Assembly: GCF_004365815.1 (NCBI RefSeq)
Contig: NZ_SODD01000035.1
Coordinates: 1-27,218 of the forward strand
Source of the DNA: Breznakia blatticola
Lineage (GTDB): Bacteria > Bacillota_I > Bacilli_A > Erysipelotrichales > Erysipelotrichaceae
Reading direction: 5' to 3'
Length of the DNA stretch: 27,218 nt
Under the pieces are notes generated by a model, which did no database searches, was not told where the DNA came from, and worked only from the letters and a program-made list of their open reading frames with translations. A program made the translations under genes and the position numbers. Positions 14,228 to 20,790 of the stretch are shown piece by piece (position 1 is the first letter of the stretch; each line of letters starts with the position of its first letter).

Positions 14228-14941
14228 ATGATGAAAAAGATCATGCAAAAACAACAATCAACAACGTCAATTGATGCACATGAACGCTTACTTGTAGGTG
14301 GTTTACTAGCAGTTGTCGGTGGGTATTTAGACGCATTTACTTACACTTGTCATGGTGGTGTGTTTGCTAATGCGCAAACGGGGAATATGGTGTTGCTTGC
14401 CGTTAATTTGTTTGGTGCAGATGTGAAATCACCACTTAATTATATTGCACCGATTTTAGCTTTTGCCTTTGGTGTATTACTTAGTGAGTATTTACATCGA
14501 AGACGTCGATTCTTTGGTGTTTTGTTGTGGAGACAAGTTGTATTAGTAATTGAGATGCTTGTAGTATTCGTCATTGGTTTTCTGCCAATGACATTTCCTA
14601 GTCTAGTGATAAATGTTGCGATATCTTTAGTAGCAGCAATGCAAATGAATAGTTTTCGTAAAGTATTAAATCTACCGTATGCAACAACTGTTGCTACTGG
14701 TAATTTACGTTCGATGATGGAAAATGTCGCAAAAGTGGTATTCGATCATGATAAACAAGCAAGAGTTCATGTCTTTCATTATGGTGGTATTATTTTCATG
14801 TTTATCATAGGAGCAATTTTTGGCTTTCTTGCATCTAGAACATTGCAAAATAAAGCAATCTTTCTAACTATACCGATTTTTGTATCTATATTGGTGATTA
14901 TTCGTGATCATAAAAAGTATGAAGGAGCTAGTGAATTATGA
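14228..14941 (+). CDS. YoaK/DUF1275-family membrane protein
   Basis: Motifs GGYLDAFTY...GGVFANAQTGNMVLL and ATGNLRS, about 6 TM. The start could be ATG 14231. Confidence 0.75.
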   Translation: MMKKIMQKQQSTTSIDAHERLLVGGLLAVVGGYLDAFTYTCHGGVFANAQTGNMVLLAVNLFGADVKSPLNYIAPILAFAFGVLLSEYLHRRRRFFGVLLWRQVVLVIEMLVVFVIGFLPMTFPSLVINVAISLVAAMQMNSFRKVLNLPYATTVATGNLRSMMENVAKVVFDHDKQARVHVFHYGGIIFMFIIGAIFGFLASRTLQNKAIFLTIPIFVSILVIIRDHKKYEGASEL

Positions 14942-15366
14942 GAAAGCAAATCGCAGTGAAAGCCTTAATTCAAAAGCAAAACGATTTCTTAGTTCTTCAT
15001 AAAACGGTAGAAGAATCAAAGTTTGATGCATCTGATAGTTTATATGATTTACCAGGTGGTCGCGTTGAAGCAGATGAAATGATGAACGATGCACTTATTC
15101 GTGAAGTATTTGAAGAAACGGGTATTCAAATACAACAAGAACAAATACAAAAAGAAGTAAACAAAGTGGATGTACAACGAAAAGATGGAACAAGTTTGCA
15201 TGTGATTACCTATCTTGTGCATGTAAATACTGAGAAAATTACTTTGAGCGATGAACATGAAGCGTATATGTGGTTAAATAAGTCGAGTGATTTGTATTCG
15301 CTTTTGCCTGAATATATACAATTATTGATGGAAAATGTTATATCTGATGATAGCAATCATGTGTAA
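14938..15366 (+). CDS. NUDIX hydrolase
   Basis: Nudix box GGRVEADEMMNDALIREVFEETGI (GX5EX7REUXEEXGU). ATGA overlap with the upstream stop. Confidence 0.85.
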   Translation: MRKQIAVKALIQKQNDFLVLHKTVEESKFDASDSLYDLPGGRVEADEMMNDALIREVFEETGIQIQQEQIQKEVNKVDVQRKDGTSLHVITYLVHVNTEKITLSDEHEAYMWLNKSSDLYSLLPEYIQLLMENVISDDSNHV

Positions 15367-15400
15367 AAAAATATGAGAGTAAATGAAGTGAGGTTAATGT

Positions 15401-15754
15401 ATGTGTGCAGATGAAAAAATGTATAAAGATTTTGTAGTATCAAAAAACATTCTTAAAGGAAAACCAGTGGGGTATAGTTTACGTGAGAAAACTGCAGATG
15501 ATACCTTAAGTGGTTGGAATGTTTTATCTATTGAAGATGATGAAACATATGTTTCAAATCCTGATAATTTTACAATTGTGAAAGCAAGTGAAATAGCAAA
15601 ACTACAACCATTACTACTTGAAATTTATGATAGTATGTATGGTACAGAATTGAACTGGCTATATGATGAAGATGGTATGTTCAAAGGATTTTTTGATCTA
15701 GGTAGTAATCAAGAAGTTAGTATTGCGCAAGTACTAACAAAAGGAATGTTGTAA
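15401..15754 (+). CDS. Small cytoplasmic protein, Imm33/DUF2185-like
   Basis: 117 aa. The pattern VSKNILKGKPVGYSLRE...SGWNVLS.EDDETYVSNPDNF.IV...I..LQP matches my recollection of DUF2185 (conserved SGW plus acidic patch). Not verified by HMM. Confidence 0.4.
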   Translation: MCADEKMYKDFVVSKNILKGKPVGYSLREKTADDTLSGWNVLSIEDDETYVSNPDNFTIVKASEIAKLQPLLLEIYDSMYGTELNWLYDEDGMFKGFFDLGSNQEVSIAQVLTKGML

Positions 15755-15802
15755 GACAAATAAGAAAAGTGTGTGTTAGAAAAATTAGCTAAAGGGGGAA
15801 AT

Positions 15803-17545
15803 ATGGCTATTATAGGAATCGATTTAGGGACAACAAATAGTACAGCAGTTGTCTACAAAGAAGGAAAAGTGGAATTTATTCCAAATGCATTTGGAGACTA
15901 TTTAACACCAAGTGTTGTTAGTAAAGATGGTGATTCAATCATTGTAGGGAAAATTGCCAAAGAACGATTGGTGCATCACGCAGATAAAACAGCTGCATTA
16001 TTTAAACGTGAAATGGGAAATCAAACAATTATACGTTTAGGAAAGGATAAGTATACACCTGAAAAATTATCAGCTGTAGTCGTTCAACAACTCGTTGCTG
16101 ATGCAGAAGCTTATCTACAAGAGAAAGTCGAAGAGATTGTTATTAGTGTTCCAGCATATTTTAATGCAAAGCAAAGACTTGCGACGAAAAAAATAGGCGA
16201 TTTACTTGGGATTAAAGTAGAACGTCTGATCAACGAACCATCGGCTGCTGCAATTGCATGTAGAGATCAAGAGGAAGATGAAACATTTATCGTTTTTGAT
16301 TTTGGTGGTGGAACACTGGATGTATCAGTAGTTGATTGTTTTGCGAATGTTATCAATATTTGTGCGATTGCAGGAAATAATCAACTTGGTGGAAGTGATT
16401 TTGATATTGCGATCGCAAATACATTTATTCAACAATCAAAATTTCCAGCAAAAACAGTGAACGATTTTGTAGGTGCAAATAGAAATAGTTTATTGTATGA
16501 AGCAGAGCGTGTGAAACTTGCTTTGCAAGATCAAGACGAAGTATGGATGCGTTATCACTTTCATAAACGTACTTATGAATTACTTTTTACAAGAGATATG
16601 CTATATACCTGTGCAAAACCAATCTTTGAAAAACTAAAAACAGTAATTGGTACAGCGGTTAAAGATAGCGGATTTCATGCACCTGAATTTACTGGTGTGA
16701 TCTTGGTTGGTGGTTCAAGTTATATGCCTGTTGTACAAGACTATCTTCGTGAACTGCTAGCAATACCGATTATGACAAGTCCTGATATGAATTTATTAGT
16801 TGCGAAAGGTTTGGGAACATATATTGCAATTAAAGAGAGAAAAGAAGAAGTGGCTTCGTTAGTTGTAACAGATGTCTGTCCATTTTCTTTATCTACTGCA
16901 GTCGTAAGTGAAATTGACCCAAGTGTTCATTTAGCTGATGTACTTATTGAGAAAAACACAGTACTACCGACAAGTAAAAGTCTTCTACTTTCACCAGCAA
17001 ACCTGGGACAAAAACATGTAAATATTCAAGTTTACCAAGGAGAATCGGCATATGCTAAGTATAATGTGTTATTAGGAAGACGGCATGTAGACCTTCCTGT
17101 GAATTTTGATAGACCAGAGATGTTTACCTTAACGTATTCATATGACATTAATTCCATGTTGTTTGTTGAAGTGTTAGTACATTCAACGCAAGAGCGAAGT
17201 ATTTTCCAAGTAGGGGAAAGTGATTACTTGGAAGATATCACTTCAAAACAAACGCTTGAACAAATCAAAGACATTTCGCTTAAGATTACACGGAAACCTG
17301 AAATTGATTTGTTAGAAGCGCGTATTCTTCGTGTCTGCGAACAAACAAGCAAACAGAAAAGCAAACACTTGATTGAGTATTGGATGGAAACTGAGAAAGA
17401 ATTGAAAAGTAATGGCCAATCACTACGAAAACAACATCAAATTATCGAGCAAGCACACCGTGTATTAGATATGTATGAAAAAGATAATGATTTGGATCGC
17501 TTGGATATATTCTCTGACGATGATTCGAAAGGATTTTTATCATGA
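15803..17545 (+). CDS. Hsp70-family ATPase of the HscC (Hsc62) subtype
   Basis: Start at ATG 15803 (AGGGGGA SD). Motifs IGIDLGTTNS, DKTAALFKREMG (near-identical to E. coli HscC as recalled), ISVPAYF, RLINEPSAAA, DFGGGTLDVS, LVGGSSYMP. A beta-sandwich SBD and a short helical lid follow. Confidence 0.85.
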   Translation: MAIIGIDLGTTNSTAVVYKEGKVEFIPNAFGDYLTPSVVSKDGDSIIVGKIAKERLVHHADKTAALFKREMGNQTIIRLGKDKYTPEKLSAVVVQQLVADAEAYLQEKVEEIVISVPAYFNAKQRLATKKIGDLLGIKVERLINEPSAAAIACRDQEEDETFIVFDFGGGTLDVSVVDCFANVINICAIAGNNQLGGSDFDIAIANTFIQQSKFPAKTVNDFVGANRNSLLYEAERVKLALQDQDEVWMRYHFHKRTYELLFTRDMLYTCAKPIFEKLKTVIGTAVKDSGFHAPEFTGVILVGGSSYMPVVQDYLRELLAIPIMTSPDMNLLVAKGLGTYIAIKERKEEVASLVVTDVCPFSLSTAVVSEIDPSVHLADVLIEKNTVLPTSKSLLLSPANLGQKHVNIQVYQGESAYAKYNVLLGRRHVDLPVNFDRPEMFTLTYSYDINSMLFVEVLVHSTQERSIFQVGESDYLEDITSKQTLEQIKDISLKITRKPEIDLLEARILRVCEQTSKQKSKHLIEYWMETEKELKSNGQSLRKQHQIIEQAHRVLDMYEKDNDLDRLDIFSDDDSKGFLS

Positions 17546-18867
17546 GTTACTTTGATGATTGCTGGACAATACTTGAAATCGAAAAGACCAACGATAAGAA
17601 AGTTATCAAATATGCCTATGCAAAATTATTAAAGAAATATCATCCCGAAGAAGCACCTGAACAGTTTCAACGTATCCAACAGGCATATAAACAAGCTTTA
17701 AATTATGCAAATCAAACAGATGAACCAATAAGTTTGGAGCAACAAGATCACACGTTAATGACTGATACAAACCAAAGTGTTGATCATAAACCATCAACAC
17801 ATACGATGGAAAACCATGAAGAGAACTTAGAACAACCGATTCATACTATTGAATTTATGAATATCGAGAATGAACAGAATCAAGGTGTTGATAAAACAAA
17901 AGACAAGAAATCGATTTTATTTGATACAGATTTAAATGTTGTGAATACAGATGCTGAGGTTCATACTTCAATATTTAATAATACAAGTATTGATGAATCA
18001 CAAGTGGTCACAAAAACCTATTTACTTCAGAAATTCGAACGAGATTTAGAACGCTCATTATCAAAAGATACAATTACGCTTTTCTTTATTGATTCTGATG
18101 TCCAAGTGTATATTAAGGATCCTACATTTGTAGAACAAGTTGAAGCCATTCTTGTCCGCAAATGTAAAAAGATGGATGAAGATATACTAGCATCAACACA
18201 GTCGTATGCAAATGCATATAAAATGAATAAGCTGTTACGTGCTATTGAGAAAAGAAAAAAGGGTGCTAAATTCAGTAAAATCAAAAAAGGTGCAGTTATT
18301 TATGTGCTTGTTATACTTTCATTTACACTACGTCCACTGCTAACGCATATAAAAAATGATAAACCAAAGGTAAATCAACAAGTAATTGAGAAATATAACC
18401 AGCTACAGGATGAACGATATGAAGAGTTATTGAATGAAAAAGCAAATGATGCATATGTTTCAATACGCAATATGGAAGCTACACGTTTTGGTTTACACTA
18501 TGGTGAAAATGAAGATATTAATATGTTGTATGATGCAAATAATGAACTTATTTTACAAGAACCGGTACTTCGATATAAAAGCAATAATGACAATGCAATG
18601 TTATTGCTAACTGAAAATGGTTGGAGTATATACTTTGAAGGAATTGCATATCCAACAAATTGGGAAGATGCAAGTTTTGTGACATTACATATTGATGGTG
18701 TACAACAAGGAGTACTTCAAGCCATTATTGCAAAAGATGTAAATGGTTATGCAATATATGACACACAAGGAAGATTCATGTATCAAGATCAAAATAATTA
18801 TGCTGAAACTGATACTTTTGATGTGTATGTTGAACAAGGAGAAATTGTTCGCGTTGAGTTAAATTAG
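17542..18867 (+). CDS. Membrane-spanning J-domain protein (DjlB/DjlC-like architecture) with an HPE motif
   Basis: N-terminal J domain (CWTILEIEKTNDKKVIKYAYAKLLKKYHPEEAPEQFQRIQQAYKQAL), polar linker, one TM (AVIYVLVILSFTLRPLL, about nt 18292-18357) and a ~170 aa C-terminal domain. ATGA overlap with the Hsp70 stop. Confidence 0.75.
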   Translation: MSYFDDCWTILEIEKTNDKKVIKYAYAKLLKKYHPEEAPEQFQRIQQAYKQALNYANQTDEPISLEQQDHTLMTDTNQSVDHKPSTHTMENHEENLEQPIHTIEFMNIENEQNQGVDKTKDKKSILFDTDLNVVNTDAEVHTSIFNNTSIDESQVVTKTYLLQKFERDLERSLSKDTITLFFIDSDVQVYIKDPTFVEQVEAILVRKCKKMDEDILASTQSYANAYKMNKLLRAIEKRKKGAKFSKIKKGAVIYVLVILSFTLRPLLTHIKNDKPKVNQQVIEKYNQLQDERYEELLNEKANDAYVSIRNMEATRFGLHYGENEDINMLYDANNELILQEPVLRYKSNNDNAMLLLTENGWSIYFEGIAYPTNWEDASFVTLHIDGVQQGVLQAIIAKDVNGYAIYDTQGRFMYQDQNNYAETDTFDVYVEQGEIVRVELN

Positions 18868-18877
18868 AATTCAAAAA

Positions 18878-18905
18878 ACGGAGCACTTTATCGTGTTCTG
18901 TTTTC
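18878..18905 (+). terminator. Intrinsic terminator after the J-protein gene
   Basis: ACGGAGCAC-tttatc-GTGTTCTGT (9 bp including 2 G-U) followed by TTT. Confidence 0.6.
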
Positions 18906-18979
18906 ATATAAAAATAAAAATGTAATCCAATGCACAAATGGATGATCGTCAAACGTATACATAATGAAGAGGGCAGTGT

Positions 18980-19444
18980 ATGGATATTAAAGAGTATGAA
19001 AGAATTGTACATAAGTATCAAGATTTGGTACTTAGAGTAGCAATGGCAAACATTAATCATCTTGAGGATGCAAAAGACATCACACAGGATGTTTTTGTGA
19101 AGCTGTTTAAGCAAGATGAATTTATTGATGAAACGCATTTAAAAGCGTGGTTGATCCGCGTAACCGTAAATCAATGTCATAGTTTATTTCGACGACACTT
19201 TCGAAAGAATCGAATGGATGTTGATTTTGAATATGAACTTGCTAGCAAAGAACATATTACAGTAAAACACGAGTTGGAATTATTAAAGCCGAAGGAAAGG
19301 GTATATGTGTATTTACATTATATTGAAGGATACACGTATAAAGAGATAGGCCAAATGCTCAATAAAAATGAATACACTGTCGCTTCGAGTATAAGACGAT
19401 CACTTAAAAAGTTAAAGATGGTCTTAAGTGAGGAAACACTATGA
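18980..19444 (+). CDS. ECF-type RNA polymerase sigma-70 family factor
   Basis: 154 aa. Region 2 (DAKDITQDVFVKLFK...KAWLIRVTVNQCHSLFRR) and region 4 HTH (YTYKEIGQMLNKNEYTVASSIRRSLKKLK). Confidence 0.85.
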   Translation: MDIKEYERIVHKYQDLVLRVAMANINHLEDAKDITQDVFVKLFKQDEFIDETHLKAWLIRVTVNQCHSLFRRHFRKNRMDVDFEYELASKEHITVKHELELLKPKERVYVYLHYIEGYTYKEIGQMLNKNEYTVASSIRRSLKKLKMVLSEETL

Positions 19445-20598
19445 AAAAGAAGAACTATCAGAATTTTTATGATGCAATTAAAGTTGATAAAACACTTGAA
19501 GATACATTACTAGCTCTACCACAAAGAAAAAGCAAATCAAAAGTACTAACAAAAGTAGCATTTGCTTGTGTAGTTGTATGTATGATTATTGCTGGTGTGT
19601 TTGCAAGTAATATATTAAAATCAGATGAAGATGTTACAGCAAATCCTGTAAATAAAAAGCCAAGTATAGCCAAAAGAATAAAAAATGGTGAAATTGTAAG
19701 TTATATCAAAAGTGATGAGTTTTTAAAGAATACTGTCATTGGTGGTATGGGAGTATCTGAACCCATAGAATTAACAAATTATGCGTATGCAAATAAGGAT
19801 GGTGCAATTACTGAACTTCCAGTGTATGAAAATCAATATTTTGATAAACAGGCTTCTACTTTTGAAATGAAGTACATAATATGGAAGACTGAAAAAATCG
19901 TAGCACAAGTAGTAGGAAGAGAAGATATTCATTTCAAAGTAGATATTGATACAAATAATCAAATATCTATATGGTTTGAATCTGACGAATTAGAAACATT
20001 AGCACCTTCCAACAAAGAAGCCATTGAGATTGCAAAAGAAATTATTGAAAAAGTAACAGGCAAAAAGCAAGAATATGAACGCTCGAGTGAAGAAATATAT
20101 GTATCTAGTTTTTATGTATATAAGTTTCATAGTAAAGATACACAACATTATGAAGAAGAGTTAAATGAAAATGTACTAGATTATAGCACACGTGATATTA
20201 ACTTCCCTGAGAACACAATGAATATGCATATCACTATAGCAAATGAATCTTCAAGAAAAAACATTGGTGAACACAAGCTAATTTCTTATGATGAAGCATA
20301 TCAACATTTAATGAAGGGAAATTACTTCAGTTTTGTACTTGATGGACCGCAATTCAATAGTACTAAAGAATATAATTGGGATTATAAGATACGTGATGAA
20401 ACAATTACAGATTGTCGTCTTGTATATTTGAAAGGAAGTTCATCTGAGAAGTATCAAATTCCTTATTATGAGTTTATTATTGATCAAAATGCATATCCAA
20501 CCTCTGAGGATACGATTGAACCTTCGTGGTATGTGAAATGTTACATACCAGCAATTGATGCAGGATACTTCGTTGGCGATTGGACAAAGTATAACTAG
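19441..20598 (+). CDS. Putative single-pass membrane anti-sigma factor with a large extracytoplasmic domain
   Basis: ATGA overlap with the sigma gene. Cytoplasmic N-terminus of ~38 aa, TM VAFACVVVCMIIAGVFASNIL, ~325 aa external domain. No HxxxCxxC zinc motif. Confidence 0.5.
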   Translation: MKKKNYQNFYDAIKVDKTLEDTLLALPQRKSKSKVLTKVAFACVVVCMIIAGVFASNILKSDEDVTANPVNKKPSIAKRIKNGEIVSYIKSDEFLKNTVIGGMGVSEPIELTNYAYANKDGAITELPVYENQYFDKQASTFEMKYIIWKTEKIVAQVVGREDIHFKVDIDTNNQISIWFESDELETLAPSNKEAIEIAKEIIEKVTGKKQEYERSSEEIYVSSFYVYKFHSKDTQHYEEELNENVLDYSTRDINFPENTMNMHITIANESSRKNIGEHKLISYDEAYQHLMKGNYFSFVLDGPQFNSTKEYNWDYKIRDETITDCRLVYLKGSSSEKYQIPYYEFIIDQNAYPTSEDTIEPSWYVKCYIPAIDAGYFVGDWTKYN

Positions 20599-20660
20599 TA
20601 TTTAGTCGGTATTTAGGGTATAATACATAGGCAAAGAGTTGTAGAAATCTACGATTCTAA

Positions 20661-20695: not shown

Positions 20696-20790
20696 GTTGT
20701 TAGCTTCTTCGTGGCTTACAACCGCTCTTCATAAGGTACATAAGTATGCGTGCATCACCTTATTTGGCGAGTCTTAACGAAAGAAGGAGG
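20696..20790 (+). promoter_or_regulatory. Structured 5' leader of rplU (position and form consistent with the L21 ribosomal-protein leader)
   Basis: Hairpin GTTGTTAGC/GCTTACAAC (20696-20722) and hairpin ATAAGGT...ACCTTAT (20731-20763) lie just upstream of the AAGGAGG SD. The family assignment is positional and from memory only. Confidence 0.35.

Follow-up and report, generated by a model that had tools for sequence, protein, structure and literature searches.

A coupled gene pair for an HscC-type Hsp70 and a membrane J-protein in Breznakia blatticola

HscC proteins make up one of the three bacterial types of Hsp70 and, according to reviews up to 2026, are largely unexplored (PMC13580251). We have analysed a whole contig of 27,218 bp from Breznakia blatticola (Erysipelotrichaceae), referred to here as the window, in which the gene for an Hsp70 of this type overlaps a gene for a membrane J-protein. 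An initial annotation of this DNA had joined these two genes and an Imm33/DUF2185 gene upstream of them into one chaperone module, and had suggested a further link to an extracytoplasmic function (ECF) sigma/anti-sigma gene pair downstream. Our analysis makes it very probable that the functional unit is smaller, namely the coupled HscC-type Hsp70 and its own J-protein, closed by a terminator, and that the Imm33 gene and the sigma pair are unrelated neighbours.

Gene organization of the locus

Three consecutive genes lie on the + strand of the window, and their open reading frame (ORF) coordinates agree with the arrangement first described, in which the last two overlap by the sequence ATGA. 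The first gene (15401-15754) encodes a 117 aa protein of the Imm33/DUF2185 family (PF09951, 52.6 bits), the second (15803-17545) encodes the HscC-type Hsp70 of 580 aa (PF00012, 300.6 bits), and the third (17542-18867) encodes the J-protein of 441 aa (PF00226, 33.1 bits). All three Pfam assignments, which had been proposed as a check on the annotation, lie above the curated cut-offs. In the NCBI database the J-protein has a 100% identical entry, 'DnaJ-like protein [Breznakia blatticola]'. For the Hsp70 we prefer the ATG start codon over a GTG at 15773, which would yield a product of 590 aa, because the sequence GGGGG (15794-15798, + strand), identified by direct reading 5 nt upstream of the ATG, serves this codon as a ribosome binding site. 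The orthologue in 'unclassified Breznakia' genomes (locus L090) is likewise called at 580 aa.

The initial annotation had also stated that the stretch from the preceding Nudix gene to the chaperone genes lacks a terminator, and indeed no terminator-like site was found between the Nudix gene and the stop codon of the J-protein gene. Directly after that stop codon lies an intrinsic-terminator-like hairpin (18875-18904, + strand) with a 12-bp stem and a U-rich 3' side. Its folding free energy is -14.4 kcal/mol (z -4.87), none of 200 shuffled sequences was as stable, and it is conserved in L090. As had been remarked, grpE does not lie nearby: neither grpE nor hrcA is present in the annotated syntenic loci, and a CIRCE element was not found.

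Sequence features of the Hsp70

The Hsp70 has the familiar layout of nucleotide-binding domain, linker, beta substrate-binding domain and a short lid, and the motifs DLGTTNS, DFGGGTLDVS and LVGGSSYMP cited in the initial annotation are all there. In BLASTP comparisons the protein scored 287 bits with E. coli HscC (YbeW), to which it is 37% identical over 466 aa, as against 188 bits with DnaK and 182 bits with HscA; identity to DnaK is just 27-30%. The DKTAALFKR.MG stretch, which had been cited as an HscC trait, is indeed common to the window Hsp70 and E. coli HscC.

Insertions and deletions that distinguish the subfamily have been listed in a review (Mayer, 2021; PMC8215388), and we read the corresponding positions from an alignment (A1) of the window protein with E. 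coli DnaK, HscA and HscC. The segment equivalent to residues 76-101 of DnaK, in lobe I, is deleted in both the window Hsp70 and E. coli HscC (A1 columns 94-117), and the GrpE-signature loop is missing from the window protein as it is from HscC (gap at A1 columns 307-312). In the beta substrate-binding domain, loop L1,2 carries an insertion of 6 residues (A1 columns 428-433), compared with 4 in E. coli HscC and with the 4-8 residues given as typical of the subfamily. Lid helix B shows a 10-column gap common to the window Hsp70 and HscC (A1 columns 569-578), the typical deletion there being of about nine residues, and the window protein shares with E. coli HscC the characteristic subfamily length of 550-580 aa (PMC8215388). 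By every sequence test, this Hsp70 is a genuine member of the HscC type.

The catalytic residues K70, E171, D194, T199 and D201 (DnaK numbering) are intact in the window protein, and the residues R167, N170 and D393, which contribute to J-protein contact and the linker, are invariant throughout A1. With these positions preserved, the Hsp70 is predicted to be ATPase-competent. Codon differences from the L090 orthologue are predominantly silent (36 synonymous against 4 non-synonymous), and this ratio indicates that the gene is functional and under purifying selection.

Domains and predicted topology of the J-protein

Hydropathy and charge bias fit the domain order that had been proposed for the J-protein: an N-terminal J domain, a linker, one transmembrane (TM) helix and a C-terminal domain predicted to lie outside the cell. 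The J domain occupies residues 1-58 (17542-17715, + strand), with the match to PF00226 extending over residues 6-50. HPE replaces the HPD tripeptide (YHPEE, residues 33-37), the N-terminus carries a CWxILEIE motif, and the loop between helices II and III is short, all of which are also features of E. coli DjlC and DjlB (YbeV and YbeS), as is membrane anchoring. The HPE sequence occurs in approximately 1% of J-proteins and is the one tolerated HPD variant, known from DjlB and DjlC (PMC10410713, PMC13254874). The J domain is 46-47% identical to those of DjlC and DjlB, and its bit scores fall from 58.9 for DjlB and 50.1 for DjlC to 36.2 for DnaJ and 18.5 for HscB. When the J-protein family was compared with DjlB and DjlC by hhalign, a probability of 98% was obtained over 57 columns. 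Outside the J domain hhalign detected no homology to the two E. coli proteins, and BLASTP aligned nothing past residue 56. On sequence grounds, the window protein is a membrane J-protein with a J domain of the DjlB/DjlC type.

The J domain is followed by a polar, acidic linker (residues 59-154; 17716-18003, + strand), for which AlphaFold2 (AF2) gave a per-residue confidence score (pLDDT) of 20-26 and no secondary structure. This linker holds 12 of the 19 amino acid differences between the window and L090 J-proteins, its length is variable among homologues, and its approximately 95 residues are probably disordered, as judged from the model. Next comes a helical, cytoplasmic juxtamembrane domain (residues 155-246; 18004-18279, + strand) that corresponds to no Pfam family. 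It is conserved in the subfamily, is 100% identical between the window and L090, and is also present in short, tail-anchored J-proteins of Holdemanella.

The predicted TM helix spans residues 250-268 (18289-18345, + strand) and has a mean Kyte-Doolittle value of 1.85; the aligned homologues all have a stronger hydrophobic segment at this position. Eight K/R residues are found in its N-terminal flank and three in its C-terminal flank, and this bias fits a topology in which the J domain is inside and the C-terminus is outside. The span is internal, with 173 residues after it, in contrast to the TM segments of DjlB and DjlC, which lie within the last 30 residues.

Beyond the span, a beta-rich C-terminal domain (residues 272-441; 18355-18864, + strand) is predicted to be extracytoplasmic, and AF2 modelled about 12 strands in it at low confidence. 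Three usable sequences were available for each AF2 target; mean pLDDT for the entire J-protein was 42.8, and the model is confident only in the J domain (pLDDT 75-88). Neither the sequence of the C-terminal domain nor its family profile matched any Pfam family or Protein Data Bank (PDB) sequence. The profile matches only proteins from Breznakia, Peptacetobacter and Faecalitalea plus two metagenome sequences, and an exhaustive HMMER search with the non-J part against 1.8 billion representative proteins recovered one distant full-length relative. No plasmid with a relative of the J-protein was found.

One resemblance of this domain was set aside. Forty residues near the C-terminus (395-434; 18724-18843) match the Big_9/cadherin-like repeats of giant adhesins with E-values down to 8e-10, values that are summed over many repeats. 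The family alignment shows no conservation of this motif, and the likeness would probably reflect a shared beta-strand pattern rather than homology.

Association of HscC-type Hsp70 and HPE J-protein genes in other genomes

A scan for J-proteins of the HPE type, conducted with one genome per species, returned 78 loci from Erysipelotrichaceae, Lachnospiraceae, Paenibacillus, Bacillus, Streptococcus, Clostridium, Leptotrichia and a few Proteobacteria. The J-protein gene adjoins a gene for an HscC-type Hsp70 in 69 of them. In 62 loci the order is Hsp70 and then J-protein on one strand, frequently with overlaps of 1 or 4 nt, and the same pairing is seen at L003, L004, L006, L008 and L091. Thus, the Hsp70 and J-protein genes, for which co-occurrence had been proposed as a test of the whole trio, do travel together, and in the window they constitute a translationally coupled two-gene unit.

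The bodies of the J-proteins were classified by a simple hydropathy rule. Of the proteins from the 78 loci, 31 have one span with more than 25 residues after it, 22 are tail-anchored in the manner of DjlB and DjlC, and the others have no span or several. A single span followed by an outward domain is accordingly a common layout in Firmicutes, and it may already have been catalogued. The pairs of Breznakia pachnodae, Peptacetobacter hiranonis and Faecalitalea, uncharacterised database entries from Erysipelotrichaceae and Peptostreptococcaceae, have the same full-length J-protein architecture and the same overlap of the two genes as the window, and their Hsp70s are 52-53% identical to that of the window.

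Several of these pairs are accompanied by a third gene. Among the closest relatives of the window pair, a protein of about 300 aa with two TM helices and an SseB domain (2TM-SseB) is encoded directly upstream in B. pachnodae (twice), L008 and L091, and in Peptacetobacter a DUF3592 gene takes this position; neither gene is present in the window. Members of the 2TM-SseB family (L004:7047-7985, L004:11096-12001, L008:4835-5755 and L091:2169-3086) have two N-terminal TM helices and, in four of four cases, a C-terminal SseB domain (PF07179), and each is encoded directly upstream of an HscC-type Hsp70 or J-protein gene. The resulting order in B. pachnodae, with partner, Hsp70, J-protein, partner and J-protein, recalls the ybeR-djlB and ybeU-djlC arrangement of E. 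coli. In Holdemanella and related Erysipelotrichaceae (L013-L018, L021, L022, L029 and L042), the Hsp70 gene overlaps at its start with an ORF for a very hydrophobic product of 93 aa. J-proteins in these genomes are just 201-212 aa long and tail-anchored, yet they contain the helical mid domain of the window J-protein.

Downstream of the pairs, the sole recurrent family is DUF1266. Its genes follow the J-protein gene at 11 of 69 other loci, and these 11 all belong to Bacillus or Paenibacillus (L039, L040, L052, L058, L062, L071, L072, L074 and L079-L081). DUF1266 is the family of E. coli YbeR and YbeU, and its recurrence in these Bacillus and Paenibacillus loci extends the association of HscC, J-protein and DUF1266 across Proteobacteria and Bacilli. 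In E. coli each J-protein gene comes after a DUF1266 gene (ybeR or ybeU), with hscC encoded on the other strand, whereas in the window the Hsp70 gene leads directly into the J-protein gene and DUF1266 is absent. In other respects the two systems are alike, as the genes for Hsp70 and J-protein are neighbours in both and neither has GrpE.

The ECF sigma/anti-sigma pair

The terminator-like hairpin is followed by genes for an ECF sigma factor (18980-19444, + strand; TIGR02937, 77.5 bits) and a putative anti-sigma factor of 385 aa with one TM segment (19441-20598, + strand). The adjacency of these genes to the chaperone pair, as originally described, is confirmed; a shared transcription unit is not, since the hairpin that intervenes directly after the J-protein stop codon makes the sigma gene a separate unit. 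The spacer at 18905-18979 contains, by eye, a TGTAAT...N20...CGTC sequence about 35 nt before the sigma ATG, which may represent an autoregulated promoter of the ECF type.

The gene order at L090 is DUF1275, Nudix, Imm33, Hsp70 (580 aa), J-protein (441 aa) and rplU. A comparison of L090:11420-11880 with window positions 18868-20598 shows that L090 retains the terminator, the start region of the sigma gene in diverged form and the final 59 bp of the anti-sigma ORF. Because remnants of both ends of the sigma pair remain, the L090 lineage must have deleted this pair and kept the chaperone pair. A sigma homologue is present within 6 kb in 6 of the 78 loci and adjacent in none, and no sigma family recurs among the 69 downstream neighbours. 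The ECF sigma/anti-sigma pair is independent of the chaperone pair, and the functional link suggested in the initial annotation is not borne out.

Upstream of rplU there is a ribosomal protein L21 leader (RF00559, 46.6 bits; 20710-20784), with nearly identical counterparts in L090 and in L002, a related contig described below. At this leader the variable region reaches its right-hand boundary.

The Imm33 gene and its neighbours

The assignment of the 117 aa protein to Imm33/DUF2185 was confirmed by its Pfam score, which is well above the PF09951 cut-off of 25.4 bits, and by the SGW motif at residues 37-39; AF2 modelled the protein with a mean pLDDT of 57.3. The gene ends 48 bp upstream of the Hsp70 gene on the same strand, with no terminator between, and is probably co-transcribed with the chaperone pair, as far as the sequence allows this to be judged.

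An orthologue that is 69% identical is encoded on a 106-kb contig (L002), and its cluster includes a protein of 'Erysipelotrichaceae bacterium MTC7'. Genes on L002 are arranged in the order response regulator, kinase, DUF1275, Nudix, DUF2651, Imm33 and rplU, with no Hsp70 or J-protein gene. The L002 DNA aligns to the window through the Imm33 stop codon and then again from the rplU promoter and leader. With both flanks aligned in this way, approximately 4.85 kb (roughly 15760-20600), comprising the Hsp70, J-protein, sigma and anti-sigma genes, is missing from L002, and Imm33 is kept. The Hsp70/J-protein block may have been gained by insertion in Breznakia or lost from the L002 lineage; divergence of the intergenic DNA is too great to tell the two apart.

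By Pfam, Imm33 was the next gene upstream in 0 of 75 other HscC/J-protein pairs, a scan that covered this next-upstream gene only. No ORF within ±6 kb of the 78 loci matched an Imm33 profile, which was built from the window protein and close relatives only (three sequences of a single lineage). Comparison by hhalign gave a probability of 0.4% between Imm33 and the 2TM-SseB partner family, and the two are unrelated. A word-based search for Imm33 homologues returned two relatives, and a metagenome scan returned none.

Imm33 was first described as an immunity domain against nucleases of the HNH fold (Zhang et al., 2012; PMC3482391). The window protein keeps the conserved Trp and is 44-51% identical to plasmid homologues, none of which is near an Hsp70 gene. 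Homologues that are 45-51% identical reside in nuclease-toxin arrays: in Listeria the gene stands behind GH-E nuclease and ankyrin genes of an LXG/T7SS toxin locus, and in Clostridium butyricum it is part of a toxin/immunity array. A Sebaldella homologue (44%) is located near a two-partner secretion locus. In contrast to the nuclease-toxin arrays, the window has no toxin gene, and the neighbours of Imm33 are DUF1275, Nudix and Hsp70. Since a toxin gene is lacking there and the gene follows DUF1275 and Nudix in the chromosomal backbone, we interpret it as an orphan gene of the immunity type within a conserved DUF1275-Nudix-Imm33 backbone, and it is not a conserved component of the chaperone pair.

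The Imm33 gene follows a Nudix hydrolase gene in the window (14938-15754), in L002 and in L090. The Nudix protein of the window matches the PADLOC candidate model PDC-S07 with an E-value of 5.9e-17. In P. aeruginosa, the Nudix enzyme RppH was reported to have the protein PA2504 (DUF2314 plus DUF2185) as its only two-hybrid partner (PMC8466066). A Nudix-DUF2185 link might offer an alternative reading of the Imm33 gene.

A bacteriocin-like cluster elsewhere in the window

Positions 5478-8450 of the window hold a three-gene cluster of low GC content (28-29%), which includes a 100-aa ORF with no family match. Its other products are a 671-aa DUF1430/bacteriocin-associated integral membrane protein (TIGR01654, 94 bits, below the cut-off) and an ABC ATPase whose score against the export model for lactococcin-972-type bacteriocins, 251.8 bits, falls short of the cut-off of 254.85. 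Judged by these matches, the cluster resembles a bacteriocin/immunity transporter set of the lactococcin-972 type. At the corresponding position the syntenic loci L090 and L002 have no such cluster.

Discussion

The evidence presented above points to a coupled gene pair of the HscC/DjlC kind. The initial annotation had proposed a Gram-positive counterpart of HscC and DjlC rather than a duplicate of dnaK and dnaJ, and this part of the proposal is well supported by the HscC indels, by the best score with HscC and by the DjlB/DjlC-type J domain. DjlB and DjlC each have a tail anchor and about 400 aa of cytoplasmic body, whereas the window J-protein has an internal span and a predicted outward domain of 170 aa. 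Because this J-protein does not follow DjlB and DjlC in how it is anchored or in the sequence of its body, we regard the pair as a variant of the E. coli system and not as a straight orthologue. The sporadic distribution reported for HscC is suggestive of horizontal transfer (PMC8215388), and the pattern of presence and absence of the pair fits a chaperone that spreads in this manner.

Other accounts of the locus differ in what they make of the neighbouring genes. In the module put forward initially, the Imm33-like protein would act as client, regulator or antidote of the Hsp70 and its J-protein. Strand, spacing and the lack of an intervening terminator all agree with such a role, the arrangement is kept in two Breznakia lineages, and the position itself can hold a partner, as relatives carry lineage-specific accessories there (2TM-SseB, DUF3592 or the 93-aa TM protein). 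The two Breznakia lineages are, however, 97-99% identical in this region and hence not independent, L002 has Imm33 without the pair, and no Imm33 gene was recognized by Pfam directly upstream of 75 other pairs or by the narrow profile within ±6 kb of the 78 loci. The protein is also unrelated to the recurrent 2TM-SseB partner, and its plasmid homologues occur with the GH-E nuclease and ankyrin protein and never with an Hsp70. For these reasons we consider it very unlikely that the three genes form one module. It is quite improbable, too, that the pair acts on the neighbouring ECF sigma factor or its membrane anti-sigma factor in response to a signal from the external domain of the J-protein. 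This idea finds encouragement in E. coli, where HscC co-purifies with sigma-70 and its over-expression lowers sigma-70 activity, according to a source that cites Arifuzzaman 2002 (PMC3861889), and in the remnants at both ends of the L090 deletion, which place the sigma pair beside the chaperone pair in the common ancestor of the two Breznakia lineages. It is countered by the terminator between the two units, by the loss of the sigma pair in L090, where the chaperone genes are intact and under purifying selection, and by the rarity of sigma homologues near other pairs, among whose downstream neighbours no sigma family recurs.

A closely related proposal, in which the J-protein is a signal transducer whose outward domain reads an envelope or cell-wall cue and so governs the place and time of Hsp70 activation, as a transmembrane relay built on a chaperone, also seems quite improbable. 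In it the ancestral ECF sigma/anti-sigma neighbour would be a client, in parallel with the sigma-70 binding reported for E. coli HscC. Very unlikely, in our judgement, is an accessory conflict or anti-phage module with the Hsp70 and J-protein as sensor and effector. The pair is present in some genomes and absent from related ones, the distribution of HscC suggests horizontal transfer, and an immunity-type gene adjoins the pair; set against this, PADLOC models gave zero matches to the Imm33 protein, Hsp70 or J-protein at E<=0.01, no toxin, nuclease or effector domain is present, the neighbours in other genomes are housekeeping or varied, and relatives of the J-protein were not found on plasmids. 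The chance that the genes are a routine duplicate of housekeeping dnaK and dnaJ is extremely small. DnaK models do give the top NCBIfam scores for the Hsp70, and Pfam returns the generic HSP70 and DnaJ families, but 296 bits is far under the DnaK equivalog cut-offs of 648 and 822, and the J-protein reaches 27 bits with the NCBIfam DnaJ model, for which the cut-off is 377. In addition, all HscC indels are present, similarity to HscC exceeds that to DnaK, and the J-protein has HPE and, by Pfam, no G/F region, zinc finger or DnaJ C-terminal client-binding domain. Together with the absence of grpE, hrcA and CIRCE, these results refute the duplicate.

Certain observations also weigh against the coupled pair as the complete unit, or limit what can be said of it. 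The short distance from Imm33 to the Hsp70 gene, with no terminator, makes co-expression with the pair likely, the search for Imm33 beyond the next-upstream gene depended on a narrow profile, and a functional link between Imm33 and the chaperones that is specific to Breznakia is possible. Because the search pattern itself contained HPE, the frequency of HPE among the 78 loci is a biased figure. The hydrophobic segment of the J-protein is modest, containing both Arg and Pro, and AF2 models it poorly. What is said of ATPase stimulation, of membrane topology and of clients is inference for every Firmicute HscC pair, and because homology to DjlB and DjlC stops at the J domain, the selection of clients could differ markedly from that in E. 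coli. On balance, we regard the terminator-closed pair of an HscC-type Hsp70 and its own J-protein as very probably the functional unit.

The working of this pair can be sketched from its E. coli counterpart. DjlC stimulates HscC, whereas DnaJ, CbpA and HscB do not; HscC lacks the contacts for GrpE, and DjlC is embedded in the plasma membrane, which suggests action on the cytoplasmic parts of membrane proteins (PMC8215388). Reported phenotypes of E. coli HscC are limited to sensitivity to cadmium and to UV (PMC8215388) and the effect on sigma-70 (PMC3861889). The Hsp70 ATPase cycle and its stimulation by a J domain are presumably the same as in the DnaK/DnaJ/GrpE system, whose catalytic and J-contact residues are conserved in the window protein. 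By analogy, the cytoplasmic J domain would trigger ATP hydrolysis in its own Hsp70 only, and nucleotide exchange would be fast and independent of GrpE. The J-protein would tether the Hsp70 to the inner face of the membrane and switch it on there. Its non-J parts would select the small range of clients that the Hsp70 may remodel, most likely cytoplasmic parts of membrane proteins. The long flexible linker would extend the reach of the J domain, and a client or partner would most likely bind at the conserved helical domain. More speculatively, the outward-facing domain would probably serve as an anchor to some component of the envelope or as a sensor of it.

The locus does not contain a new system, and its analysis removes a false lead from this chaperone to polymorphic-toxin immunity. 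What it brings into view is a widespread and tightly coupled Firmicutes gene pair for an HscC-type Hsp70 and an HPE J-protein, in which many of the J-proteins have a region beyond the membrane span, unlike the tail-anchored E. coli proteins. The third gene differs by lineage, being DUF1266, 2TM-SseB, DUF3592 or a gene for a 93-aa membrane protein, and these recurrent partner genes are better leads to the clients of HscC than is Imm33. Bitopic J-proteins and their recurrent partners thus provide a usable handle on the function of HscC.

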